This document shows, piece after piece, positions 1 to 28,645 of a stretch of DNA of 60,677 nt. Each line of letters starts with the position of its first letter. Position 1 is the first letter of the stretch. Both the position numbers and the translations under genes were made by a program. This DNA is from an uncultured Clostridia bacterium (GTDB lineage Bacteria > Bacillota > Clostridia > TANB77 > CAG-508), in contig CANQSP010000002.1 of assembly GCA_947626555.1 (NCBI GenBank), positions 1-60,677 of the forward strand, in the 5' to 3' direction. Below the pieces are notes generated by a model. The model was not told where the DNA came from. It was given only the letters and a program-made list of their open reading frames with translations, and did not search any database.

Positions 1-397
1 CGTAGGAGTCTGGGCCGTATCTCAGTCCCAATGTGGCCGTTCAACCTCTCAGTCCGGCTACTGATCGTCGACTTGGTAGGCCATTGCCCCACCAACTATC
101 TAATCAGACGCGAGCCCATCTGTTAGCGGATTACTCCTTTCCCACTAGAACCATGTGGTTCTTATGGCATATGCGGTATTAGCAATGATTTCTCACTGTT
201 ATTCCCCTCTAACAGGCAGGTTGCTCACGCGTTACTCACCAGTCCGCCACTAAAGCCATTGTTGTAAGTCAATTTCCACTTTCTTCGAACAAGTTCTCTG
301 TCCGCGTCCACATCATTACAACGACTTCCGTTCGACTTGCATGTCTTATGTGCGCCGCCAGCGTTTATCCTGAGCCAGGATCAAACTCTCTTGTTAT
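1..397 (-). rRNA. rrs: 16S rRNA, 5-prime ~395 nt only (rest lies beyond the window start)
   Basis: Reverse complement of 361-390 reads GAGAGTTTGATCCTGGCTCAGGATAAACGC and continues to CATGCAAGTCGAACGG. Reverse complement of 1-20 ends ACGGCCCAGACTCCTACG (universal ~340-357 region). The exact mature 5-prime end is estimated. Confidence 0.95.
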
Positions 398-2433: not shown

Positions 2434-4743
2434 TTATTTTTTTATCTGTAATGAATATTCATACATTTTTATTGTTTGAATTTTATTTTCAAATTCATTA
2501 ATTATTATATTTAACTTAAAATCTCTTCTTGCTATTAATTTTGTATCAAATTTATCAAAATTCAACAGTACATCTTTTGATATATCCATACCTAACGGAA
2601 GTGTTTTATTGTTATTATCAAAAAAGATTATATTACTATAATATATTATTGGCATTTGTTCCTTTATATTATATTTGTATAAAATAATTTCATCTTGTTT
2701 AATTTTATTTATGGCATCTTCTGGATTAATACTGCATATTTCAAATCCCTTATTTTCTGTCTCACTTGTTTTGCTATTATATACTGGCATATCATAATTT
2801 GATACAACTTTTCCATAAACTTCTTTTAATAATGTAAGATAATTTTTTATAGTTTCTTTATATTCCTCTATATCAGTTTCTAAATTTACATTTAATATTT
2901 TATATTTTTCTTTTTCAATTTCTCTATGTTTTTTATTATTTAGAAGTTTTATTTTTGTGTTATCTTCAATTACATTTCCAAATATGTCAAAATCTTTTGC
3001 TTTAATATTTTCAATATCTTCTTCATATTCTTTTTTTAATTTTTTAAGATTCTTTTCCAGTATTGTAATATCTCTTTTTAAAATTTTATCTGTATTCAAT
3101 ATTTTAAAAGCTTCTTCATCACTTTTTATTGCAAAAATTGCATCACATTCACTTTTAGAAAATATTTCTCTTTGCTTACTGTCTACTTTCTGCCCCAATT
3201 CCTCTATATCATTTTCATAGTCAAAAGCTTTCCTTAATTTATCATTATGAACGTTTTCATCATTATTTTCACTTTCTACAAGTAGTGCAACTTCATCTTT
3301 GTTCGCATATTTCCAAAAATCAAAAATACTTTTTTTATGACTTTCAATTTCATTTATATATAAAGTAGCATTCCTAATTTTTCTTTCAAGATTATCTTTT
3401 TTATTTTCTGCAGCTTTTATATCCATTTGCATATTTTTATATTTTGCTCTTTTTTCTTCTAATTTATTGCCTAAGTTTAGTAAATCTTCTATTGTATATA
3501 ATTCTTTTTCTTCAATCAATTCTTCTTCAATTTTTATTTTTTCTTTTGCATTTTCTGCATTTTCTTTACTCTTTGTACTGTCTACATTCATTGCTTTCAC
3601 TTTTTTACTGTTTTTCTTTCCTTGAAAATAATATTTCATTTTACCAAAAAAACTTTTTTTACATTCTAAAAAAGTAACTATTTGCTTTTCTTTAAAAGAA
3701 TATTCTTCATTTTGTTTTTTTATTGTTTTATTTAATAATTCTAACTTTTCAGCATCAAATAATAATTCTGTTGAAAGTTTTTCATATTCATTTTTATTTC
3801 TTATAAACTCATTTTTTAGAAAATCTGGTAAAGTACTATAATTAACTTTTTTTAACTCATAAAAAAAGTCTATTGCACCTTTTTCATTTATTACTACTTT
3901 AAATTTATATTCTTGAGGTATTTCGCTTTGTAATATAAATAAAGCTTTTATTAGTTTATATATCTCTCCTGCTTCTTTTTTGTTTGATAATTCTATTTTA
4001 TATATGCTTTTAATTTTATCATATACTTCAGTTTGCCCTATAATTTGCAAACTTGCATTATCTGCTTTATCATAAACTTCATATATTGATGGCCACGATT
4101 TAGTAAATAGCCATAAATAGTTTTCTAAATCAGCTATTTCTGATTTTTTTAAAATACCACTTGAATATTCTAAATGGCTTATAGGTACATATATTAATTC
4201 TTTTTTCTTTGATTTTTGTGATTGAATTTTTTTCTTTATAACATAAAATAAACTTTCTACACTATCTTCTCTACTTGGAAATAGCATAAAATATTTTTTA
4301 GATACTTCTGAATAAAATATTTGCCATATAAAATTTTCTTTATATTTTACTTCATATGGTATTTGCTTATTTAATTGTTCTTGTGCTTTTTCTAGTTCTT
4401 GCAATTTACCAATGTCTAATTTTTTTAACATTTCTAAAAATGATGTATATTTTTCTATACTATCAGCATTTTTTTCTATATTTTCTTCGGTTGTTATATA
4501 ATCTGCTAAATAACTTGCCTTTTTAAATTTTTGATTCAAATCATCTAGCCTGTCTGATGGAGTTACAAATATTTCTATATCTTTTATATTTACATATTTA
4601 TATATTTTATAGCTTGTGTCATCATATATTTTATCCGTTCTGAACTTTATAGCTTCCTTCTGTTTTAAACAGGCTGGTATATTTTCTATATCTAACCCAA
4701 TATATTTTAACTTTTCTTCTATTTCTTTTGTGTTTTTAGACAT
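2434..4743 (-). CDS. large K/E-rich coiled-coil protein (769 aa), unknown function
   Basis: Uninterrupted ORF. ATG 4743 lies 5 nt after AAGGAGG. It ends 29 nt before the deoB ATG, so it is probably co-transcribed. No catalytic motif recognised. Confidence 0.7.
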   Translation of the reverse strand: MSKNTKEIEEKLKYIGLDIENIPACLKQKEAIKFRTDKIYDDTSYKIYKYVNIKDIEIFVTPSDRLDDLNQKFKKASYLADYITTEENIEKNADSIEKYTSFLEMLKKLDIGKLQELEKAQEQLNKQIPYEVKYKENFIWQIFYSEVSKKYFMLFPSREDSVESLFYVIKKKIQSQKSKKKELIYVPISHLEYSSGILKKSEIADLENYLWLFTKSWPSIYEVYDKADNASLQIIGQTEVYDKIKSIYKIELSNKKEAGEIYKLIKALFILQSEIPQEYKFKVVINEKGAIDFFYELKKVNYSTLPDFLKNEFIRNKNEYEKLSTELLFDAEKLELLNKTIKKQNEEYSFKEKQIVTFLECKKSFFGKMKYYFQGKKNSKKVKAMNVDSTKSKENAENAKEKIKIEEELIEEKELYTIEDLLNLGNKLEEKRAKYKNMQMDIKAAENKKDNLERKIRNATLYINEIESHKKSIFDFWKYANKDEVALLVESENNDENVHNDKLRKAFDYENDIEELGQKVDSKQREIFSKSECDAIFAIKSDEEAFKILNTDKILKRDITILEKNLKKLKKEYEEDIENIKAKDFDIFGNVIEDNTKIKLLNNKKHREIEKEKYKILNVNLETDIEEYKETIKNYLTLLKEVYGKVVSNYDMPVYNSKTSETENKGFEICSINPEDAINKIKQDEIILYKYNIKEQMPIIYYSNIIFFDNNNKTLPLGMDISKDVLLNFDKFDTKLIARRDFKLNIIINEFENKIQTIKMYEYSLQIKK

Positions 4744-4937
4744 TTCGTCCTCCTTAACATTATTGATGTTTTTTCTAATTATTTTGTAGTTCTTTTTTAG
4801 TATAACACACTTTATTTTTTGCAACAATAGAATTTTTGTATTTTATTAACATTGACAAAAATAATAAACTTTTATTAAAAAATACTATTGACACAAATTA
4901 ATTGATTATTTTATAATCCTTGTTAGGAGGTATATAT

Positions 4938-5891
4938 ATGAATAAAAAAATAATTTTTATAATATTAGCTATAGTTATTATTTTAGTAGTAGCTATTGGA
5001 GGAATTGTATTTCTAAACAATAATAATGAAGGAAATTCTACTCAACCTTTTAATTCTAGCAATAAATCATCAAATGATGGAACTACATCTTCCACTCAAC
5101 AGGCAGAATCTATTGAAGATTTACCAAAATATAATAATTACAAATTATATGAAATAAAAGATGCTGTTAATGAAGATTGGTTTACAAAAATAGGTGAAGT
5201 CGGAGAACTAAAAAAATCTGCTTCAACTGACAACCCTTTTAATTACAGTGATGTCATTTTAGGATACAATGAAAAAACAAAAAAGCAATATTTATATCCT
5301 GATGCTATAATTATTCAAGGGAAAAATGATAAAAAAGAATTCGAACAAACTGTAATAAAAAAAGAGCAATATGATACTGGTGATGGCTATGAATTTGTAA
5401 AAAATGTTTTAAAAATATCTGGATCTACAGACGATGAGATTGAGGAAATAATATTAGATAATTTTAAGATAACAGATGAAGATATTAATAAAGAAGTAGA
5501 ATCACTAAGTAAGTATTCTGAAACATCAGCACAAAAATATAAGGATAGAATGACAGTTCCTCATTCTAATACTGTAAGTAAACAAATGCCATGGAACTTC
5601 TACAAAAATTTACGAGCAGATGCATTCAATTTTAAAGTTGAGGCTTGGGAAGTTCCAAATGAAATGAATGAAATCGCAACTTATAGCTTTAATATTTCAG
5701 GAAATTGTGGTGATCAATATAAAGATTTTGGCGGTGAATATAGAATAATATTAGTTTATGATGATTTAAAGGCTAATGTAAACATTTCATATAGTGAAAA
5801 TGATGATGTAAAATATTATGCAAAATTTTATTATTATTCAGGAATACTTGATAAAGATGCTTATGAAAAGTATTCTAATAGTGAAGATTAA
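4938..5891 (+). CDS. membrane-anchored protein (317 aa), unknown function
   Basis: ATG 4938 lies 7 nt after AGGAGG. N-terminal TM helix IIFIILAIVIILVVAIGGIVF followed by an N/S/T-rich linker. Confidence 0.65.
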   Translation: MNKKIIFIILAIVIILVVAIGGIVFLNNNNEGNSTQPFNSSNKSSNDGTTSSTQQAESIEDLPKYNNYKLYEIKDAVNEDWFTKIGEVGELKKSASTDNPFNYSDVILGYNEKTKKQYLYPDAIIIQGKNDKKEFEQTVIKKEQYDTGDGYEFVKNVLKISGSTDDEIEEIILDNFKITDEDINKEVESLSKYSETSAQKYKDRMTVPHSNTVSKQMPWNFYKNLRADAFNFKVEAWEVPNEMNEIATYSFNISGNCGDQYKDFGGEYRIILVYDDLKANVNISYSENDDVKYYAKFYYYSGILDKDAYEKYSNSED

Positions 5892-5910
5892 TTTAAGTCA
5901 AAGTAATTAT

Positions 5911-5935
5911 CCCCCAGCTAAGCTGGGGGCTTTTT
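5911..5935 (+). terminator. rho-independent terminator
   Basis: CCCCCAGCT-A-AGCTGGGGG hairpin followed by CTTTTT, 20 nt after the stop at 5891. Confidence 0.8.
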
Positions 5936-6150
5936 ACTGTCTGTAAGCTTCTGGCTATGTCGGTAACTTACAAACAGTAAAATCAGCAATGCTAAAAGTC
6001 ATTGCTGATTTTTTATGTAGTAAAATTTTATTTTTTTATAAAAATTAAAACTATCCATTTCACTTGTTTATTTCAGAATAATATTATATAATATGTTCAT
6101 AATTTGATAAAAGACCTTTTAATCAAGGCAAAGGAAGGATGATAAAAAAT

Positions 6151-8471: not shown

Positions 8472-8606
8472 TTTAAACTATTAGGGACGGGGTTAAATAG
8501 TTTAGCTGTATTAAAACTATTCACCCTTTTTCCCTAACAGCTCTATATTATTTAAAAACTCCTTAATTTCAGCTAAACTATTTAACCCCGTCCCTAATAG
8601 TTTATA
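8472..8606. repeat. mini copy of the nested-palindrome element (outer hairpin pair only, plus one degenerate module)
   Basis: 8472-8506 TTTAAACTATTAGGGACGGGGTTAAATAGTTTAGC and 8572-8606 GCTAAACTATTTAACCCCGTCCCTAATAGTTTATA are inverted copies of the outer modules seen at 12061, 20048 and 27834. 8513-8543 looks like a decayed third module. Confidence 0.85.
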
Positions 8607-11600
8607 TGTGATATAAGGCTGACTTCCTGGCGAAAATTTTACTCTATTTCCGTATTCTTTTATTAATGGGTTCACAATATCTACATTAAATTTTTCTGCA
8701 TCAAAAATATATACTATGCCATCCCTTTTTTGTGATACTTTTATTACATTTGCTTTTTTGCACATTTCTTTTATTCTTGCTATTTCTATTAGGTTTTCAA
8801 CTTCTTTTGGTATTCCGCCGAATCTATCTATTATTTCATCTATAATGTTTTGAACATCTTCTTCTGTTCTACATAGTGCTATATCTTGATATATTTCTAT
8901 TTTTTGACTACTATCACTTATAAATTCGTCTGGTATATAGCTTGATACATTTAAGTCTATTTGAACGTCTTTTTCTTCATATACCTCTATTCCCTGCATT
9001 TGCTTTATGACTTCATCTAAAAGTTTGCAATATGTGTCATATCCTACTTGTTCCATGTGACCATGTTGAATTTCTCCCAATAAACTTCCTGCTCCCCTTA
9101 TTTCTAGGTCACGCATTGCTATTTTAAATCCAGAGCCAAATTCAGTAAATTCTTTTATTGCTTTTAACCTTTTATCTGCTACCTCTGATAATAGTTTGTC
9201 TCTTTTATATGTTACATATGCATATGCCTGCTTATTACTTCTTCCAACTCTACCTCTTATTTGATATAGTTGAGCTAGACCTAATCTATCTGCATCTTCT
9301 ACTATTATTGTGTTCGCATTTGGTATATCTATTCCAGATTCTAATATTGTTGTGCATACTAGTACGTTAGTTTTTCCCTCTACGAACTGCATCATAATAT
9401 CTTCAAGTTCATTACCTGTCATTTTTCCATGTGCCACTGCTACATTTGCCTCTGGTACTAAAAATGATATTTCATCTGCTTTTTTATTTATTGATTCAAC
9501 TTTGTTATATAAATAGAAAACCTGACCGCCTCTTTCTAGTTCTTTGGTTATTGCTTCTTTTATAACTTCTTCATCATATTCTAAAATGTAAGTTTGAACA
9601 GGTCTTCTGTTCTGTGGAGGCTCGTATATAACAGACATATCTCTTACACCAACTATTGACATGTGAAGCGTTCTTGGTATTGGTGTTGCAGTCATTGTAA
9701 GTACGTCTATACTTGCTTTATATTGCTTTATTTTTTCTTTATCTTTTACACCAAATCTGTGCTCCTCATCTATTATAAGTAGCCCTAAGTCTTTAAATTC
9801 AACATCTTTGCTTAATATTCTATGTGTTCCTATTACAACATCTATTTCACCTAATTTTAATTTTCTTACTATTTCATCTTGCTCTTTTTTAGTTCTAAAT
9901 CTATTTAATAATTCAACCCTTATTGCAAAGTTTTCCATTCTGGATTTAAAGCTTTCGTATTGCTGATTTGCAAGTATTGTTGTTGGCACTAAATATGCAA
10001 CTTGTTTTTGATCCATTACCGCCTTAAATGCTGCCCTTATTGCAACTTCAGTTTTTCCATATCCAACATCACCACACAAAAGCCTATCCATCGGTCTTGG
10101 TTGTTCCATGTCTTTCTTTGTTTCCTCTATGCAACGAAGTTGGTCGTCTGTTTCTGCATATTCAAAACTTTCCTCAAATTCTTTTTGCCATGGTGTGTCT
10201 TTTGAAAATGCAAAACCTTTTATTTTCTGCCTTTTAGCATAAAGTTCAATTAATTCTTTTGCCACTTCTTTTAAATTATTCTTAACTTTTGCTTTAGTAC
10301 TCTCCCACTCTTTTCCGCCTAATCTATTAATTTTTGGAACAGCTTCTCCTGCACCTATATATTTTCTTATGTTGTCTAAATCGTTTGTAGGAATGTATAA
10401 CATATCATCATTCCTATACCTTATTTTAATATAGTCTTTTGTAACTCCCTCTGTTTTGATAGTATTTACCCCTATAAATTGACCTATACCATGATTTTTA
10501 TGCACCACATAGTCACCAATTTGTAAGTCTGCAAATACTACCTTTTCTCCTTCCTTAAAGGCCGAAGATAATTTTCTCTTTTTCTTTACATTTGTTTCAA
10601 ATAAATCTTCTCCAGTTATTACAATTAAATTCAAATCATAACATTCAAAGCCTTCTGATAGTCTACCTTTGGAAACTATCACTTCGCCTTTTTTGTATTC
10701 TACATTTTCTAAATTATCTACATATTTACTTTGTATTTCTTTTTCATTTAATAAAATTGCAAATTTTCTGGAATCCTCTTCATTTCCTGCTAATATTATT
10801 ATTTGCTTTTTAGATTTTTTTATGTCTTCAAATAGCAATTCCATTTCACTTTTATAATAATTTACATCTCTAAAGTTAAACACAAATTTCGTACTACTTG
10901 CATTTGAAACTCCGAAATCTTGCTTTTCTAAATATACTACCTGTTTTTCTTCTAAATTATAGACATATTCACTTATATTTTGAATAGACTGTGGAATCAT
11001 TTTTTGCTTTTCTACTAATGTTTTTATTAAATTATTATTCTCTATAATTATATTTTCTTGTCTTTGATTTACCTTTGAAAATTCATCTATTAAAATTAAA
11101 TACTTATCTAAATAATCTAAAAAACTACCCTGCTTTTTATAAAAACAGTTAAAATATTTATCTATTTTACTAATATAATTTCCACTTTTTATTTGTTCTA
11201 TATCTTCTTGTCTTATCTGCTCTAATTCATTCGTTTCTAGTTTTCCTTCTAAGATTTTGTTACATATATCAGTTATACTTTCTTCAATTAAAAATTCATG
11301 TGAAGGGTAAATTTCCACATTTTCTAGCATAACCGTAGACCTTTGGTCGCTAATACTAAATTGCCTTATAGAATCTATTTCATCTCCCCAAAACTCTATT
11401 CTTATACCACTTTTTTCACTATTAGAAATATCTACAATTCCACCTCTTATACTAAATTGCCCTCTACCTTCTACTAAATCATTTCTTTCATAACCCAAAT
11501 AAACTAAATCTTGCTTCAACTTCTCTAAATCATAGGTATCCCCAATTTTAAACTTTAAAATATTTTTATATAAACTTGTTTTAGTAATCATTTTTTGCAT

Positions 11601-12060: not shown

Positions 12061-12404
12061 GCTAAACTATTGGGGACGGGGTTAAATAGTTTAGCACTTA
12101 CTTTATTTTTGTTAAACTATTAGGGACGGAGTTAAATAGTTTAACAACTTAATTGCTATATAGCAAAACATTAATATTATATATTTTGAAGTGATTCGTG
12201 GGGACCGTTTTAGAAAATGTTACGAACATGTGTGAGTTACATTTTCTTAAATGGGGCAACGCAAAAATATATAATATTAATGTTTTGCAAGTATTATAAT
12301 TAAAATTTAGTTAAACTATTTAACTCCGTCCCTAATAGTTTAACTGTTTCGTTATAGATTACTAATTGTGCTAAACTATTTAACCCCGTCCCCAATAGTT
12401 TAGC
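12061..12404. mobile_element. nested-palindrome element, copy A (putative non-autonomous MITE/REPIN-like element)
   Basis: Outer modules 12061-12095 and 12370-12404 are perfect 35-nt inverted repeats. Inner modules 12111-12145 and 12310-12344 are also perfect. The core has a 25-bp stem (12163-12187 with 12264-12288). No ORF over 28 codons. Confidence 0.7.
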
Positions 12405-20044: not shown

Positions 20045-20392
20045 CTCCTTAAACTAATAGGGACGGGGTTAAATAGTTTAGCACTTATTTTATTTTTTAG
20101 TTAAACTATTAGGGACGGAGTTAAATAGTTTAACAACTTAACTGCTATATAGCAAAACATTAATATTATATATTTTGTAGTGATTCGTGGGGACCGTTTT
20201 AGAAAATGTTACGAACATGCGTGAGTTACATTTTCTTAAATGGGGCAACGCAAAAATATATAATATTAATGTTTTGCAAGTAAAATAGTTTAAATTTTGT
20301 TAAACTATTTAACTCCGTCCCTAATAGTTTAACTCTTTATAAATTACTAATTGTGCTAAACTATTTAACCCCGTCCCTATTAGTTTAAGGAG
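20045..20392. mobile_element. nested-palindrome element, copy B (termini extended to CTCCTT...AAGGAG)
   Basis: Outer modules 20048-20082 and 20355-20389 are perfect inverted repeats, and the IR extends 3 nt further on each side. Inner modules 20100-20134 and 20299-20333. Core stem 20152-20176 with 20253-20277. Confidence 0.7.
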
Positions 20393-20535: not shown

Positions 20536-22221
20536 ATGCAATTCGTTACTAATCATCTTTGGGTAATTATAGTTATTGCGGCAATTATTGGAATCATAAT
20601 TTTTCTGGCTGCAATCTACAAAGTTGCTGATATTGACAAGGCACTGATAATCACTGGTGGCAAGGAACCTGTTATCAAGGTATCTGGGGGCTCGTTTGTC
20701 ATCCCTATTTTCCGCAAAGCAAGCTACTTTGATTTATGTATGCTTACTGTACGAGCAGATAAGGATGAAATTAAGACCTGTACCGCTGTGCCTATTGTTG
20801 CTGACTGGACTGCTCAAATTCGCCCTTGTGTTAACGATGAAACTAAACTTCGTACAGCAATTATTTCCTTTAAGGAACGAGGTAATGATGGTATTATTGC
20901 GGATGTTAAGCTCACTCTTATGGGTGCTGTGCGTGATGTTGTTGCCTCTATGACTCCTGAAGCAATTTTGAATAACAAAGAAGCTTTTAAACAGGAAATT
21001 CAGAAAAGCGTTGCTGATGAAATGGATAATATGGGCCTTGAGCTTGTATCTCTAAACATTCAGGATGTTTCTGATAGTAACGGCTACTATGACAACATTG
21101 CTGCTTTGGATTCAGCTGAAAAGCGTAAAGCTGCTGAAATTAAGCATGCAGAAGTTGACCAAGTAACTCGCGAAAAGAAGGCAGAAGCAACTAGAGCTGC
21201 TGAAATTGCCGAGGCAACAGCTAAGAAGGAAACCGAGATTTCCAAGATGGAGGCAGAGCTTGCCGAGAAGGAAAAGCGCAAAGATACCGACATGAAACTC
21301 GCAGAATTCAAAATTGCAACAGAAACCGCCAACGCAGATGCTGACGTTGCTGGAGAACTGCAGAAAACTCTTCGCGAACGTGAAGTCGAGGAACGTAAGG
21401 GTGCTGTTGCTGTTATGAAGGCAGAGCAGGAAAACCTTGCAGCTCAAAAAGAGCGTGAAGTTATGATTACACGTGCAGAAGCTGATAAGGCGACTAAGCT
21501 TGTTAATGCAGAAGCAGATGCAAACGTTCAGGCTATTCAGGCAGATGCCCAAATAAAAGTTGCCGAGCGTAAGGCTGATGCAGCGCGTAAAGAAGCCCAA
21601 GGTAATGCTGACGTTGAAACTATTGCAGCTGAGGCTCGTGTAAACGTTGCCGATCGCGACGCTGAAGCAGTTAAGAAGTCTGCTTTTGCACAAGCTGAAA
21701 AGACTCGTGCCGAAGGTCTTGCCGAAGCTGAGGTTTCCAAGCAAAAGGCTCTTGCTGAAGCTGAAGGTAAAAAAGCTGCTCTCTTAGCTGAAGCAGAAGG
21801 TTTAAAAGCTCAGCAACTTGCTGAAGCTGAAGGTATCAAAGCCAAGAAGCTTGCAGAAGCTGAAGGTGAAAAATCCCTTGCAGAAGCACGTGCAGCAAAT
21901 GAAAAAGTCAATTTCGAGATTGAGAAACTCAAGATTCAAACTGATGCTCAAGTAAGAATAGCCACTTCTACTGCTGAAATTATGGCAAATATTGGGCAAA
22001 ATGCCGAATTCGTCAATATCGGCGGTGGAAATGTTCCTTGTCCTACAGGTACAAGTGGAACAGGTAATGTTTTACTTGACACCATAATGCAGATGCCTGC
22101 ATTGATGAAGACTCTTAACATCCAGAATGAGGCACTCAATGGTCGGCCTGTTACAGAAGAAATCAAAAACATTTCTGATGCAGCCCTTTCTGGCTTGGGA
22201 GCACTAAAAAAAGAGTCATAA
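20536..22221 (+). CDS. flotillin-family protein (SPFH/Band 7 domain plus long Ala/Glu-rich coiled coil)
   Basis: ATG 20536 lies 5 nt after AAGGAGG. N-terminal TM helix, SPFH region (IITGGKEPV...FVIPIFRKASYFDL...) and EA-rich repeats (AEAEGKKAALLAEAEGLKAQQLAEAEGIKAKKLAEAEGEK). G+C is far above its neighbours. Confidence 0.85.
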   Translation: MQFVTNHLWVIIVIAAIIGIIIFLAAIYKVADIDKALIITGGKEPVIKVSGGSFVIPIFRKASYFDLCMLTVRADKDEIKTCTAVPIVADWTAQIRPCVNDETKLRTAIISFKERGNDGIIADVKLTLMGAVRDVVASMTPEAILNNKEAFKQEIQKSVADEMDNMGLELVSLNIQDVSDSNGYYDNIAALDSAEKRKAAEIKHAEVDQVTREKKAEATRAAEIAEATAKKETEISKMEAELAEKEKRKDTDMKLAEFKIATETANADADVAGELQKTLREREVEERKGAVAVMKAEQENLAAQKEREVMITRAEADKATKLVNAEADANVQAIQADAQIKVAERKADAARKEAQGNADVETIAAEARVNVADRDAEAVKKSAFAQAEKTRAEGLAEAEVSKQKALAEAEGKKAALLAEAEGLKAQQLAEAEGIKAKKLAEAEGEKSLAEARAANEKVNFEIEKLKIQTDAQVRIATSTAEIMANIGQNAEFVNIGGGNVPCPTGTSGTGNVLLDTIMQMPALMKTLNIQNEALNGRPVTEEIKNISDAALSGLGALKKES

Positions 22222-22310
22222 TTCATTCAAATAAAACTCTAAGAAGATTTACACTATCACTAACTTAACTTTTTAGAAGAAAGTACCTTAATAGGTACTC
22301 TCTACATACA

Positions 22311-22345
22311 AAAATTCCAGCGATTTTTCACTGGAATTTTTGCAT
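22311..22345 (+). terminator. rho-independent terminator after the flotillin gene
   Basis: AAAATTCCAG-loop-CTGGAATTTT followed by T-rich sequence. Confidence 0.75.
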
Positions 22346-22468
22346 TCGGGCTCTTATTCCACCCTCATCTTCTTTTTCTCTTTTTACAAATTACAGTTTT
22401 AGCAAAGTTTATAAGATTCTTAAAATCATCGTAAAAAAATAATTATTTAGAATTTTGCAAAAGATTTT

Positions 22469-23239
22469 TTAAACTCCCACTATTGAAAATCCATTATCAA
22501 CATGTATAATTTCACCTGTAATTGCAGAAGACAAATCACTAAACAAAAAACTTGTTGCATCTCCAACTTGTCTAGTTGTAACATTTTCATGTAATGGTGC
22601 TCTTTCTTCTACAATATCTAATATTGAATTAAAGTCCTTTATACCTTTTGCAGATAATGTTTTTATAGGTCCTGCTGAAATTCCATTTACACGAATTTTA
22701 TCCTTTCCTAAGTTTACTGCCATATATCTTATACTTGATTCTAATGCTGCTTTTGCTACTCCCATTACATTATATCCTTCTATTGCTTTTTCTGCTCCAT
22801 AATATGTAAATGCCACTATACTTGCTCCTTCGTTTAGCATATCAATTTCTTTTGCAATCCTTGCTACTGCGACAAGTGAATAAGCACTTATATCACATGC
22901 ATGAGCATAACCTTCTCTAGATGTTAATATAAAATCATTTCTTAAATCATCTGTATTTGCATGTGCTATACTATGTAAAATGCCATCTACTTTTCCATAT
23001 TCTGCTTTAACATTTTCTAAACACTTTCTTATACTTTCATCATTTCCTGCATCACATGGAAAAGATTTTGAACCAGGTATTTGACTAATTAATGAATTTA
23101 TCTTTTCTTCATTTTCAAACTCACTATGAGTAAATATAACTTGCGCTCCATTTTCATAAGCAGACTGTGCTGCCCCCCATGCTATACTCCATTTGTTTCT
23201 AATTCCCATTATTAATACTTTCTTACCTTCTAATATCAT
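22469..23239 (-). CDS. fabI: enoyl-ACP reductase (NADH), FabI type
   Basis: 256 aa from ATG 23239 (AGGAGG SD 6 nt upstream). GIRNKWSIAWG N-terminus and YNVMGVAKAALES (Y-x6-K) motif. Confidence 0.9.
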   Translation of the reverse strand: MILEGKKVLIMGIRNKWSIAWGAAQSAYENGAQVIFTHSEFENEEKINSLISQIPGSKSFPCDAGNDESIRKCLENVKAEYGKVDGILHSIAHANTDDLRNDFILTSREGYAHACDISAYSLVAVARIAKEIDMLNEGASIVAFTYYGAEKAIEGYNVMGVAKAALESSIRYMAVNLGKDKIRVNGISAGPIKTLSAKGIKDFNSILDIVEERAPLHENVTTRQVGDATSFLFSDLSSAITGEIIHVDNGFSIVGV

Positions 23240-23314
23240 TTTTTTCCTCCTATTTTGATTTTCTAACATTTAATTTCTATATATTAATAATAAATTTGAC
23301 TTATTAAAAAATAT

Positions 23315-24125
23315 TTACATCTTTCTAAATTTTTCATAGCGTTTTTCTATTAAAGTATTGCTATCTAGCTTTCTAAGCTTTTCTAACTCTTGAAGAATAT
23401 ATTTTTTTATGTCTTTAGTAACTTTTTCAAAATCGTTTTGTGCACCACCATCTGGTTCTTTAATTATTTTATCAATAATATTTAGTTCTTTTAAATCTTC
23501 TGCTGTAATTTTCATATTTTCTGCCGCTTCACTTGCTTTGTTTGAATCTTTATATAATATACTTGCAAACCCTTCAGGAGACAAAATTGAATAAATTGCA
23601 TTTTCTAGCATTACTATTCTATCTCCAACACAAATAGCTAAAGCACCCCCACTTGAACCTTCTCCTATTACTATTGATATTATTGGAACTTTTAATGTTG
23701 CCATTTCCATCATAGATTTTGCTATTGCTTCTCCGTTGCCCTCTTTCTTCAGCACCAATACCAGGATATGCACCTGGTGTATCTATAAACGTTATTATTG
23801 GTCTACCAAATTTTTCAGCTTGTTTCATTAGTCTCATAGCTTTTCTATATCCTTCTGGATTTGGCATTCCAAAATTTCTTTGCATATTTTCTTTAGTAGT
23901 TTTTCCTTTTTGCTCTCCTATAACTGTAACCGCTAACTTGTTAACTGCAGAAGTACCAATTGTAGCAATTCCTCCTACTATAGATTTATCATCTCCATAT
24001 AATCTATCACCATGTAATTCTATAAATTCATCAAATATGCTTTCTATATAATCTAATGCCTTTGGTCTATCCTTTTGCCTTGCAATCAAAACTCTGTCCC
24101 ATGCAGATATAATTTTCTCTTTCAT
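23315..24125 (-). pseudogene. accA: acetyl-CoA carboxylase carboxyltransferase alpha subunit, interrupted by a +1 frameshift near 23735
   Basis: ORF 23619-24155 carries [18 protein letters not shown], then leaves frame. ORF 23315-23773 resumes with [34 protein letters not shown]. One extra base (plus-strand G at 23735) separates the frames. Confidence 0.8.
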
Positions 24126-27396: not shown

Positions 27397-27819
27397 TTAT
27401 ACTATCGCAAAAGTAAGTTTCCCTTTAGCTGCAACTTTCCCATCAACTGTTGCTATAGCCTCTCCCACACCCACAGGTCCTTTCCTTTTTATTATTTTTA
27501 CTTCTAATTTCAATGTATCACCTGGCACTACTTGCTTTTTAAATCTTAAATTATCTATACCTCCAAAAAGTGCATTCTTTCCTTTATTTTCTTCCATAGA
27601 CAATATTGCAACTGCACCTGTTTGTGCCAAAGCTTCTACAATTAATACCCCAGGCATTATTGGTTGCCCAGGAAAATGCCCTGCAAAATAAGGTTCATTA
27701 ATACATACATTTTTATATGCTATACAGCTTTCTCCTGGAACATATTCTTCTACTCTATCTATCATTAAAAATGGTGCTCTCTGAGGTATTATTTTCATTA
27801 TCTCATTTATATCTAACAT
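27397..27819 (-). CDS. fabZ: 3-hydroxyacyl-ACP dehydratase
   Basis: [10 protein letters not shown]-like [34 protein letters not shown] hot-dog motif. 140 aa. Confidence 0.95.
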
Positions 27820-27833
27820 CTCTTTTCCTTTCT

Positions 27834-28179
27834 GCTAAACTATTAGGGACGGGGTTAAATAGTTTAGCACTAAGCTATTTCTTAAGTTAAACTATTAGGG
27901 ACGGAGTTAAATAGTTTAACAACTTAATTGTTATATAGCAAAACATTAATATTATATATTTTGTAGTGATTCGTGGGGACCGTTTTAGAAAATGTTACGA
28001 ACGTATGTGAGTTACATTTTCTTAAATGGGGCAACGCAAAAATATATAATATTCATGTTTTGCAAATAATATAAATAAAATTTTCTTAAACTATTTAACT
28101 CCGTCCCTAATAGTTTAACTGTTACTTTGCAAATTACTAATTGTGCTAAACTATTTAACCCCGTCCCTAATAGTTTAGC
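27834..28179. mobile_element. nested-palindrome element, copy C (inside the acc/fab operon)
   Basis: Outer modules 27834-27868 and 28145-28179 are perfect inverted repeats. Inner modules 27886-27920 and 28085-28119. Core stem 27938-27962 with 28039-28063 (one mismatch). Confidence 0.7.
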
Positions 28180-28645
28180 TTTTTATTTTAAATAATGGAG
28201 TTCCATACTCTACCATATCTTCATTTTTAACACATACTTCAACTATTTCTCCATCAAAATCAGATTCTATTTCATTCATTAATTTCATAGCTTCCACAAT
28301 GCACAAGACTTGACCTTGTGAAACTTGGTCCCCTACTTTTACAAAAGGATTATCTTTTGGAGAATTGCTACTGTAAAAAGTTCCTACCATTGGAGATTTA
28401 ATTACTTTTAAGTTTTCTTCTGCTTCATTCTCTTTTTTATCTATATTTTCAGGGATTACTATTTTTTGAACTTTGTTAACTGTTATTTCATTATTAGTAG
28501 AATCTATTTGCCTCTCCAATTCCTTTTCTTTTGACATACTAATTTTAGTTCCATCCGAAAATTCGATATTTAGGTTATCTATTTTAGAATTTCCCATATC
28601 CTCCATTAACTTTTTAATATTTTCATAATCCATATTAAAATTCAT
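28175..28645 (-). CDS. accB: biotin carboxyl carrier protein
   Basis: Biotinyl domain with the EAMKLMNEIE biotinylation motif. Stop codon TAA (28175-28177) lies inside element copy C. Confidence 0.92.
   Translation of the reverse strand: MNFNMDYENIKKLMEDMGNSKIDNLNIEFSDGTKISMSKEKELERQIDSTNNEITVNKVQKIVIPENIDKKENEAEENLKVIKSPMVGTFYSSNSPKDNPFVKVGDQVSQGQVLCIVEAMKLMNEIESDFDGEIVEVCVKNEDMVEYGTPLFKIKS

Follow-up and report, generated by a model that had tools for sequence, protein, structure and literature searches.

Three copies of a nested palindromic element in the genome of an uncultured Clostridia bacterium raise the question of why their hairpins and cores are nearly identical while the short spacers between these parts diverge. 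The copies, herein referred to as A, B, and C, are located in a stretch of 60,677 nt (contig CANQSP010000002.1, assembly GCA_947626555.1), the whole of which is called the window. A preliminary description, for which every coordinate and sequence given for the three copies proved exact, had explained this mosaic by selection or templated correction of discrete modules and not by neutral decay of a dead repeat. The element is probably a compound, TIRYT-like member of the REP/REPIN-RAYT system (repetitive extragenic palindromic sequences, their inverted doublets, and the REP-associated tyrosine transposases), that is, a set of non-autonomous nested palindromic repeats with an associated Y1 transposase that would recognize and copy them, only the hairpin and core modules being needed for this. 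The family to which it belongs is real and well defined; it is ordinary in principle and new in its host, in the position of its tag, in its nesting, and in its apparent in-place dynamics.

All three copies have the same order of segments: an outer hairpin (35 nt), the spacer s1, an inner hairpin, a 17-nt linker, the core, the spacer s2, the reverse complement of the inner hairpin, the spacer s3 with the ATTACTAATTGT block, and the reverse complement of the outer hairpin. The hairpin motif was found 14 times in the window and the core three times, with no occurrence of either expected from shuffled sequences. The whole element is predicted to form a single long nested hairpin on both strands (z about -19). 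Differences between the copies, given here in the order A-B/A-C/B-C, are unevenly distributed. The inner hairpins differ at 0/0/0 positions on the left and 0/1/1 on the right, the AT-rich stem arms of the core at 0/0/0 and 0/1/1, the 73-nt core centre at 2/3/3, and the left linker at 1/1/2. The outer hairpins differ at 4/1/3 positions per side, the left and right arms being mirrored. The spacers differ at 3/7/6 (s1, 15-17 nt), 5/4/5 (s2, 21 nt), and 6/5/6 (s3, 9-13 nt) positions. Taken together, the inner hairpins, linker, stem arms, and core centre (213 nt of conserved blocks) have 3/6/7 differences and the spacers (about 50 nt) 14/16/17, with Fisher p from 6e-9 to 1e-8. The core centre contains two invariant motifs, TCGTGGGGACC and AAATGGGGCA, both on one strand. 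The ATTACTAATTGT block is also invariant in the three copies (0/0/0), from which a functional asymmetry of the element had been concluded. This conclusion was not upheld: the block is part of the outer-shell spacer family, it is found on the other side of the core in another element (locus L029, 21/25 match to the reverse complement), and the interiors of elements are flipped in many orthologous pairs (see below). The long spacer of copy C, to which the block belongs, is homologous to the GGTAATTTnAAAATTAC..GT spacers in other two-shell copies.

The same pattern is general. A scan with the pattern GGGACGGRGTTAAATAGTTTA, using one genome per species, detected at least 79 loci, and all 79 loci listed (L001-L079) come from three metagenome-assembled genomes (MAGs) of uncultured Clostridia from rabbit gut. 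The window assembly is distinct from these three and 77-95% identical to them across collinear stretches. Each locus comprises 8 kb and was retrieved through one perfect unit, the remaining units in the loci being free of that selection. All counts for the family refer to the window and these loci and are hence lower bounds. In total, at least 247 hairpin units were found, arranged as 62 one-shell pairs, 24 two-shell nests, and 30 solos, 15 of the solos being far from any locus end and the others close to one or cut by it. The basic unit is a hairpin of 31-35 nt, the AT-rich stem of which (TAAACTA/TAGTTTA) is invariant and the loop of which, AGGGACGGGG, is rich in G; it occurs singly, mostly as inverted doublets, and also nested. 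The body of 31 nt, TAAACTA-TT-AGGGACGGGG-TTAAATAGTTTA, hardly varies among 248 units outside five positions. Mismatches to the consensus, counted in 256 units, number none in 114, one in 87, two in 21, and three in 23 units, and only five units have 4-8; in the shuffled control, none had fewer than nine. The hairpin family is without a tail of decaying units. When 17 copies with a type-2 core and 10 one-shell copies with a type-1 core were aligned (core types are described below), pairwise identity was 0.9-1.0 for hairpins and cores and 0.2-0.6 for spacers. No matches to the element were found by BLAST in plasmid and phage collections, nor by exact-pattern scans of JGI metagenomes (core and hairpin) and IMG/VR. 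The family thus seems to be limited to this lineage within the collections searched.

One gene in the analyzed loci is bounded by the repeat. In locus L057, an open reading frame (ORF) of 252 aa (5109-5867) is the sole ORF between two solo hairpins in inverted orientation (about 4802-4836 on the plus strand and 5907-5941 on the minus strand). Its protein scores 51 bits against the Pfam model Y1_Tnp (cut-off 23) and has the HuH motif NHVHMLV together with YIHQNP; residues H60, H62, Y121, N125, and P126 are invariant across 40 homologues. The Y---NP pattern is the signature of all class-2 (RAYT-type) Y1 proteins (PMC6006769). The structure of the protein was predicted with AlphaFold2 (mean confidence pLDDT 86.7) and compared with the PDB by Foldseek. 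The top match of the model is 4ER8, Escherichia coli TnpA-REP bound to a REP hairpin (E 2.3e-6, TM 0.71), ahead of the TnpA proteins of IS608 and ISDra2. Similarity to the 4ER8 protein in sequence is weak, with both motifs aligned. Residues from about 143 to 251 of the model are all-helical; matches to the helix-turn-helix (HTH) models PF13545 and PF13412 of Pfam were found in some homologues only, and the L057 protein itself has none at E<=0.01. An 85% identical orthologue from other samples, also bracketed by hairpins, occupies the same fhs-gene-groES-groEL position (L080-L083), so that the fhs-RAYT-groES-groEL context is alike in two species. No second copy of the transposase was found: tblastn gave one match in the window and the 79 loci listed, and ORF clustering in 635 kb of sampled loci detected no multi-copy transposase ORF.

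The L057 protein is a member of a broad set of Clostridia proteins of about 250 aa. Four homologues from other AT-rich genomes (38-46% identity; loci L084, L087, L088, and L089) were inspected for the flanks of the Y1 gene, and all are flanked by inverted repeats with GGGAC(G/A)G. In L088 (repeats at 9871-9907 and 10739-10767), the flank has the form AAAGATGATTTT-AGGGACGGGGGT-AAAATCATCTTT, in which the loop is that of the window, AGGGACGGGG, and the stem is different yet complementary. In L089, three tandem 33-nt copies are located upstream of the Y1 gene. Tags in the flanks of five homologues, namely AGGGACGGGG, GGGGACG, or AGGGACAGG, are G-rich and related to, though not exact matches of, GGGGWSAS. 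The genomes of the distant homologues have only two or three flanking copies per 20 kb, and amplification to hundreds of units appears to be special to the rabbit-gut lineage. That the stem was exchanged while the loop stayed the same is the strongest argument for a hairpin whose recognition tag is carried by the loop. Support for a local hairpin comes from this comparison between species; within the family, the outer stem pairs fail to covary.

The elements fall into distinct size classes: 72-73 nt (two back-to-back hairpins), about 110-150 nt (one shell), 211-239 nt (two shells), 233-240 nt (one shell with the type-1 core of the window), 251-278 nt (one shell with a second, type-2 core), and 342-346 nt (two shells with the type-1 core). 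The last class includes the three window copies and the elements in L007 and L029. Type-2 cores were also found without any hairpin shell in L010 (about 690-860), its orthologue L035 (about 5370-5540), and L075 (about 3900-4060), where the AT-rich inverted repeat of the core (GCAAAAyATTAATAT...) forms the only boundary. This makes the cores a family of palindromic repeats in their own right, usually housed inside hairpin shells. Additionally, outer-shell spacers are homologous to spacers of 115-nt one-shell elements. Taken together, the naked cores and this homology indicate that the window element consists of separate units nested in three layers. The sequence GTGGGGACC is present on one strand in both core types, and the GGGAC motif shared with the hairpins suggests that the cores may be substrates of the same transposase.

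Partial stem copies were observed just outside the elements in L012 (6580-6720), L004 (7100-7125), L068 (6195-6215), and L023 (2355-2375), in the forms gctaaact/ATTAAACT...AGTTTAAT/agtttagc and ...AATAGTTTAGC/taatagtttagc (slashes mark the junctions). Their appearance is that of an older hairpin stem that received an insertion or left a footprint. In L048 (7090-7150), a degenerate solo unit with a substituted left stem (GGGACAATTAGGGACGGGGGTAAATAGTTTA) is adjoined by a G-rich palindrome, TGGGGCAATTGGGGACTGTCCCCAATTG; a shorter form was found in L014 (about 3990). This palindrome may represent a further type of repeat with the GGGAC tag.

Both arms of a shell change in concert. Across 109 shells, 274 departures from the consensus are common to both arms and 35 are found in one arm only, compared with 88 shared departures expected for random pairing of arms (maximum 114 in 1000 trials). 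The arms are identical in 74 shells, and inner and outer units within one element differ at 3-8 of 35 positions. Matched changes are also present in the AT-rich stem of the core (ACATT/AATGT, ACAAT/ATTGT, and AGATT/AATCT). Variants at stem positions 10-11 disrupt the local stem and have no local compensation. The evolutionary signal within the family is arm-to-arm identity rather than the local hairpin.

Evolution in place was followed at 24 orthologous site pairs matched through their flanks. Orthologous hairpin units have 41 mismatches in 1600 positions (2.6%; about 7/900 in pairs of equal architecture, by our own tally), compared with 631 in 11410 (5.5%, p=7e-8) for the flanks, which are mostly coding. 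After correction for flips, the values are 35/979 (3.6%) for cores and 38/293 (13%) for spacers. The excess in spacers comes mostly from the more distant comparisons with the window and from one pair, and between the two closest genomes most spacers diverge near the flank rate. Thus, units at a given site change much more slowly than coding DNA does, and the spacers are not hypermutable. The spacers had been called scrambled, a description that was not supported as it stands: part of their divergence reflects subfamily and nesting structure, and within subfamilies most spacers change at about the flank rate. Subfamily likeness is seen in the window itself, where s1 is similar in A and B, and the core and linkers of C are similar to those of L029. 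A selfish argument, by which only intact copies are copied, cannot alone keep a resident copy intact, and the low divergence of units in place implies that each copy is under selection or that the copies are re-templated.

Changes at positional orthologues are informative about the second possibility. Fourteen positions are altered mirror-wise in both arms and 10 in one arm; for example, CTATTGGGG/CCCCAATAG in window copy A corresponds to CTATAAGGG/CCCTTATAG in L060. Compared over 124 positions, the cores of the three window copies have 2-4 differences in each pair (2 between A and B); core A has 12 relative to its positional orthologue in L060, core B has 10 relative to that in L047, and the two orthologues have 6 between them. 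Paralogous cores within a genome are therefore closer than positional orthologues. Of 13 informative orthologous pairs, six have the segment enclosed by the arms in opposite orientations, among them window B and L047 (L047:4577-4812 and window 20049-20388; another example is L013:2736-2966 and L017:4293-4524), and the flanks of these 13 pairs are 92-100% identical in most cases. Architecture changes as well: the orthologue of copy A in L060 has a single shell, that of copy B in L047 a single shell with the core inverted, and L068 and L072 differ by a plain deletion in place. Mirrored changes, close paralogues, and flipped or altered interiors could all be explained by recombination or template switching between inverted arms. 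Taking the rates at orthologous sites, the mirrored arm changes, the absence of a decay tail, and the distances of paralogues and orthologues together, some templated homogenization and/or selection of modules is needed, as the preliminary description had proposed.

Correction of quasi-palindromes by template switching and recA-independent inversion between short inverted repeats are general replication error pathways. They are not tied to any repeat family and would yield perfect arms, mirrored variants, and flipped interiors, as observed here; they may act in this family. Under the REP/REPIN-RAYT reading, a window copy would have arisen from an outer doublet into which an inner doublet was inserted near the centre, with a separate palindromic core inside. 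The transposase would recognize the hairpin by the GGGAC loop tag on single-stranded DNA and copy doublets, and new doublets would be placed preferentially in the exposed apex of existing hairpins and beside TAA. Module-wise conservation would follow if only the hairpin and core modules count for recognition and folding. The arms of each pair and, to some degree, separate copies would be kept alike by templated processes, candidates for which are arm-to-arm recombination or replication template switching in quasi-palindromes, possibly together with re-copying mediated by the transposase; such processes would also flip the segment between the arms. The spacers would be unconstrained remnants of older shells, drifting at about the flank rate and, between paralogues, old and nearly unalignable.

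A more far-reaching scenario is doubtful, although it deserves mention. According to it, a RAYT/TIRYT-type clade with no amplified repeats known would have seeded hundreds of self-correcting, nestable palindromes in one Clostridia lineage, with a loop tag, insertion at the apex, arms and copies re-templated so that they stay identical beyond the separation of species, interior inversion near saturation, and possibly heritable expression switches across the genome. The last idea stems from the location of the copies, which lie precisely in the gap between a stop codon and the ribosome-binding site that follows.

The positions of the elements and of the parts of copy C are collected in Table 1. 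The small element at 8472-8606, the fourth in the window, was absent from the preliminary description.

Table 1. Repeat elements of the window, segments of copy C, and adjacent genes.
Feature	Position in window	Strand	Remarks
Small one-shell element	8472..8606		Two inverted hairpins, of outer type only, enclosing 69 nt
Copy A	12061..12404	+	Architecture as copy C; between divergent mfd and Gate-domain transporter gene
Copy B	20048..20389	+	Architecture as copy C; ribosome-binding sites directly adjoining both ends
fabZ	27397-27819	-	Neighbour of copy C
Copy C, whole nested element	27834..28179	+	Two hairpin shells and type-1 core; fold -161 kcal/mol, z -18.6
Copy C, outer-left hairpin module	27834..27868	+	REP-like unit, GCTAAACTATT-AGGGACGGGGTTA-AATAGTTTAGC
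Copy C, spacer s1	27869..27885		Short spacer of outer shell, variable
Copy C, inner-left hairpin module	27886..27920	+	GGGACGGAG variant, mirrored in inner-right arm
Copy C, left linker	27921..27937		Contains small palindrome TTGYTATATAGCAA
Copy C, type-1 core	27938..28063	+	26/27-nt AT-rich inverted repeat (GCAAAACATTAATAT...) enclosing 73-nt centre
Copy C, spacer s2	28064..28084		AT-rich, variable
Copy C, inner-right hairpin module	28085..28119	-	Reverse complement of inner-left module
Copy C, long outer-shell spacer	28120..28144		s3 and ATTACTAATTGT block
Copy C, outer-right hairpin module	28145..28179	-
accB (biotin carboxyl carrier protein, BCCP)	28175-28645	-	Neighbour of copy C

The elements are closely fitted to the ends of genes. 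Copy C occupies the accB-fabZ intergenic space inside an operon, and the stop codon of accB is the TAA within the terminal GCTAAAC of the copy. Among 63 gene 3' ends that face elements, 26 terminate at the TAA in the element's terminal TAAACT and a further 11 within the unit; the use of reading frames at these ends (26:11:2) is far from even. This pattern suggests either insertion at or next to TAA or selection against read-through. Start codons are frequently just 10-30 nt from an element. The small element encodes the last 29 residues (KLLGTGLNSLAEIKEFLNNIELLGKKGE) of Mfd/TRCF (1152 aa) and its stop codon (window 8517-8606, minus strand), the tail being read through the element in its sole stop-free frame, and the same arrangement was found in L055 and L060. 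Scans for promoters and terminators gave matches at the level of shuffled sequences, and an outward promoter in the element ends was dropped as a candidate on these counts.

Other explanations of the mosaic were weighed against the same observations. A purely historical one, in which young inner hairpins and cores were inserted independently into old, diverged outer shells and only age and subfamily matter, is unlikely. The nested architecture, the naked cores, and the homology of outer-shell spacers to one-shell elements agree with it, as do spacers that follow subfamilies (A with B in s1, C with L029 in core and linkers) and are well kept between the closest genomes. However, it is opposed by modules that diverge several-fold less than coding flanks at anciently occupied orthologous sites, by the near absence of decayed modules, and by mirrored arm changes at the same site that postdate the species split. 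Moreover, a type-1 core is present at sites A and B in each of the two lineages, and the cores of A and B nevertheless resemble each other far more than either resembles its orthologue; independent re-insertion into the same two shells is improbable (roughly estimated at <1%). An equally small chance was assigned to a structural RNA or DNA selected by the host, for instance an operon hairpin that controls mRNA stability, processing, or translation or binds a nucleoid protein, with the core being functional. The span of copies from a stop codon to 10-30 nt ahead of the next start, the location of copy C within the accB-fabZ operon, the very stable folds predicted on both strands, the conservation of modules in place, and a core with invariant asymmetric motifs would all suit such a role. 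Against it, core orientation is random with respect to strand and genes and flips between orthologues, the architecture at a single site varies between species, conservation at the DNA level is symmetrical, and the hundreds of copies are next to unrelated genes; promoters and terminators are matched at chance level. No Rfam family matches the element either: at the gathering threshold, Rfam matches in the window are confined to its 16S rRNA gene fragment, and at permissive thresholds the best matches on the element are miRNA-type hairpins at chance level. Selection by the host is compatible with a REP/REPIN-RAYT origin, the two not being exclusive.

Ordinary miniature inverted-repeat transposable elements (MITEs), moved by a DDE-type insertion sequence (IS) transposase that recognizes 35-nt terminal inverted repeats, are a highly improbable explanation, for all that terminal inverted repeats, small size, high copy number, and intergenic placement are MITE-like features. 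No target-site duplication of 3-5 nt was found at the elements, and matches of 1-2 nt are accounted for by palindromic RY ends, so that nothing in the range of 1-5 nt exceeds what such ends produce. The ORF clustering described above detected no multi-copy transposase gene, the sole repeat-bounded gene encodes a Y1 transposase, and solo units and nested arrays typify REP sequences and bacterial interspersed mosaic elements (BIMEs) instead. IS200/IS605 elements are characterized by a class-1 TnpA, end hairpins on the same strand (direct), and strand-biased insertion. These elements, and their miniature derivatives (palindrome-associated transposable elements, PATEs), were rejected as candidates: the L057 protein has 25 bits with the IS200 model (cut-off 55), the arms are truly inverted, and no strand bias is present.

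Several observations weigh against assignment to the REP/REPIN-RAYT system itself. REP_Tyr_transpos is the best NCBIfam match of the transposase, yet its 66.6 bits are below the curated cut-off of 80. The canonical GT[AG]G foot tag is absent, the foot being RY-TAAACTA in 248 units. The family is atypical in this respect, for which subclasses 2.6 and 3 and the TIRYTs are published precedents. No covariation is seen at the two outermost base pairs of the local stem (103 of 249 Watson-Crick, 97 expected). A single motif, GGGAC, connects the cores with the transposase and suggests their role. Four element sites are all occupied in the window, L055, L060, and L047 (about 19 kb collinear), which makes the insertions older than the species splits; neither presence/absence polymorphism nor an excision product was found in this collinear sequence. 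Core orientation has no bias with respect to the replication strand (7:11 and 13:9), unlike transposition of the IS608 type on single strands. Finally, the comparison genomes are short-read MAGs, some with about 4x coverage. The 6 of 13 flips reflect either a very high inversion rate or an effect of short-read assembly, and both the flips and the likeness of paralogues could partly be such effects, for which long-read confirmation is needed. With arms of 35-40 nt, shorter than the usual final k-mer, interior orientation should be resolvable in MAG assemblies.

REPIN-RAYT systems are a main example of long-lived, vertically inherited replicators in bacterial genomes and are known mostly from Proteobacteria, with GTAG-tagged REPs. 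The family described here, which the preliminary description had not recognized as one of this kind, shares with them abundant, mainly extragenic short palindromic units found mostly as inverted doublets forming long hairpins (86 paired arrangements and 30 solos; predicted doublet fold -35.7 kcal/mol as DNA), a repeat-flanked Y1 transposase that is probably single-copy and vertically inherited here as well (one match in the sampled DNA), the absence of target duplication, and long persistence at orthologous sites. Spacers in REPINs are likewise more variable than the REPs, and changes in one side of the hairpin are commonly compensated in the other (Bertels and Rainey, PMC3116915); both features are present here. 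In contrast to the systems of Pseudomonas and Enterobacteria, this family has no GT[AG]G foot tag and carries its GGGAC tag in a 13-17-nt loop, its host belongs to an AT-rich Clostridia lineage, its transposase has about 250 aa with a helical C-terminal extension, nesting reaches three layers with separate core palindromes, and interiors are often flipped between related genomes. A literature search on RAYTs in Firmicutes gave nothing specific; RAYT group 1 is present in Clostridia, with flanks that are only weakly repeated (PMC5581495).

The TIRYTs or TIRtrons are RAYT-like genes flanked by inverted repeats with GGGGWSAS that are occasionally amplified (Di Nocera et al., 2013, PMC3733652). 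Common features are the RAYT-like protein between inverted repeats with a G-rich motif and the distribution of repeats, most genomes having the flanking copies only (as is the case for the four distant homologues) and a few having amplified families as dimers or clusters. TIRYT proteins are longer and have HTH-like C-termini, to which the helical extension in the model here may correspond. The motif of this family, AGGGACGGGG, is an inexact match to GGGGWSAS. TIRYTs largely correspond to Y1 subclass 2.1, near the genes of which no REP-like sequences were found (Quentin et al., 2018, PMC6006769), whereas the repeat here is amplified to hundreds. By its length, helical C-terminal extension, and G-rich flanking repeats, the transposase resembles TIRYT/subclass 2.1-type clades. 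E. coli BIMEs are likewise modular mosaics, with conserved inverted palindromic units parted by other motifs and located between operon genes. Their sequences are unrelated, and the elements described here have strictly nested layers, no tandem clusters, and a central motif that is an independent palindromic repeat.

If the assignment is correct, the family would extend systems of the REPIN-RAYT kind to Gram-positive anaerobes and link an amplified repeat to a transposase clade resembling those reported without such repeats. It would also add a different recognition logic, with a conserved loop and a free stem, which is supported by stem covariation between species. Flipped interiors, mirrored arms, and paralogues closer than orthologues form a natural data set on how interspersed palindromes stay identical in place. 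These data bear on the evolution of REPs by gene conversion, a question dating to 1988, when it was raised in the title of a review cited in PMC3116915. In practical terms, the elements break short-read assemblies and supply stop codons, even C-terminal tails, to essential genes such as mfd.

Breaks of this kind were observed at copy C. Strain variants of the copy were sought by exact-protein look-up, in which the AccB protein had no record and the contigs encoding FabZ end within the element. Two independent metagenome contigs with identical FabZ (L085:1-131 and L086:1-87) stop inside copy C, where the repeat breaks the assembly. Two positions of the small palindrome distinguish the L085 contig from the window (AATTACTATATAGC and AATTGTTATATAGC). 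Elsewhere in the window, positions 1-396 (minus strand) contain the 5' part of a 16S rRNA gene truncated by the window end; compared with the bacterial model, its first variable hairpin has an insertion of 56 nt (at about model positions 80-83). Positions 21001-24000 have a local G+C content of 0.36, compared with 0.24-0.32 in the rest of the window.

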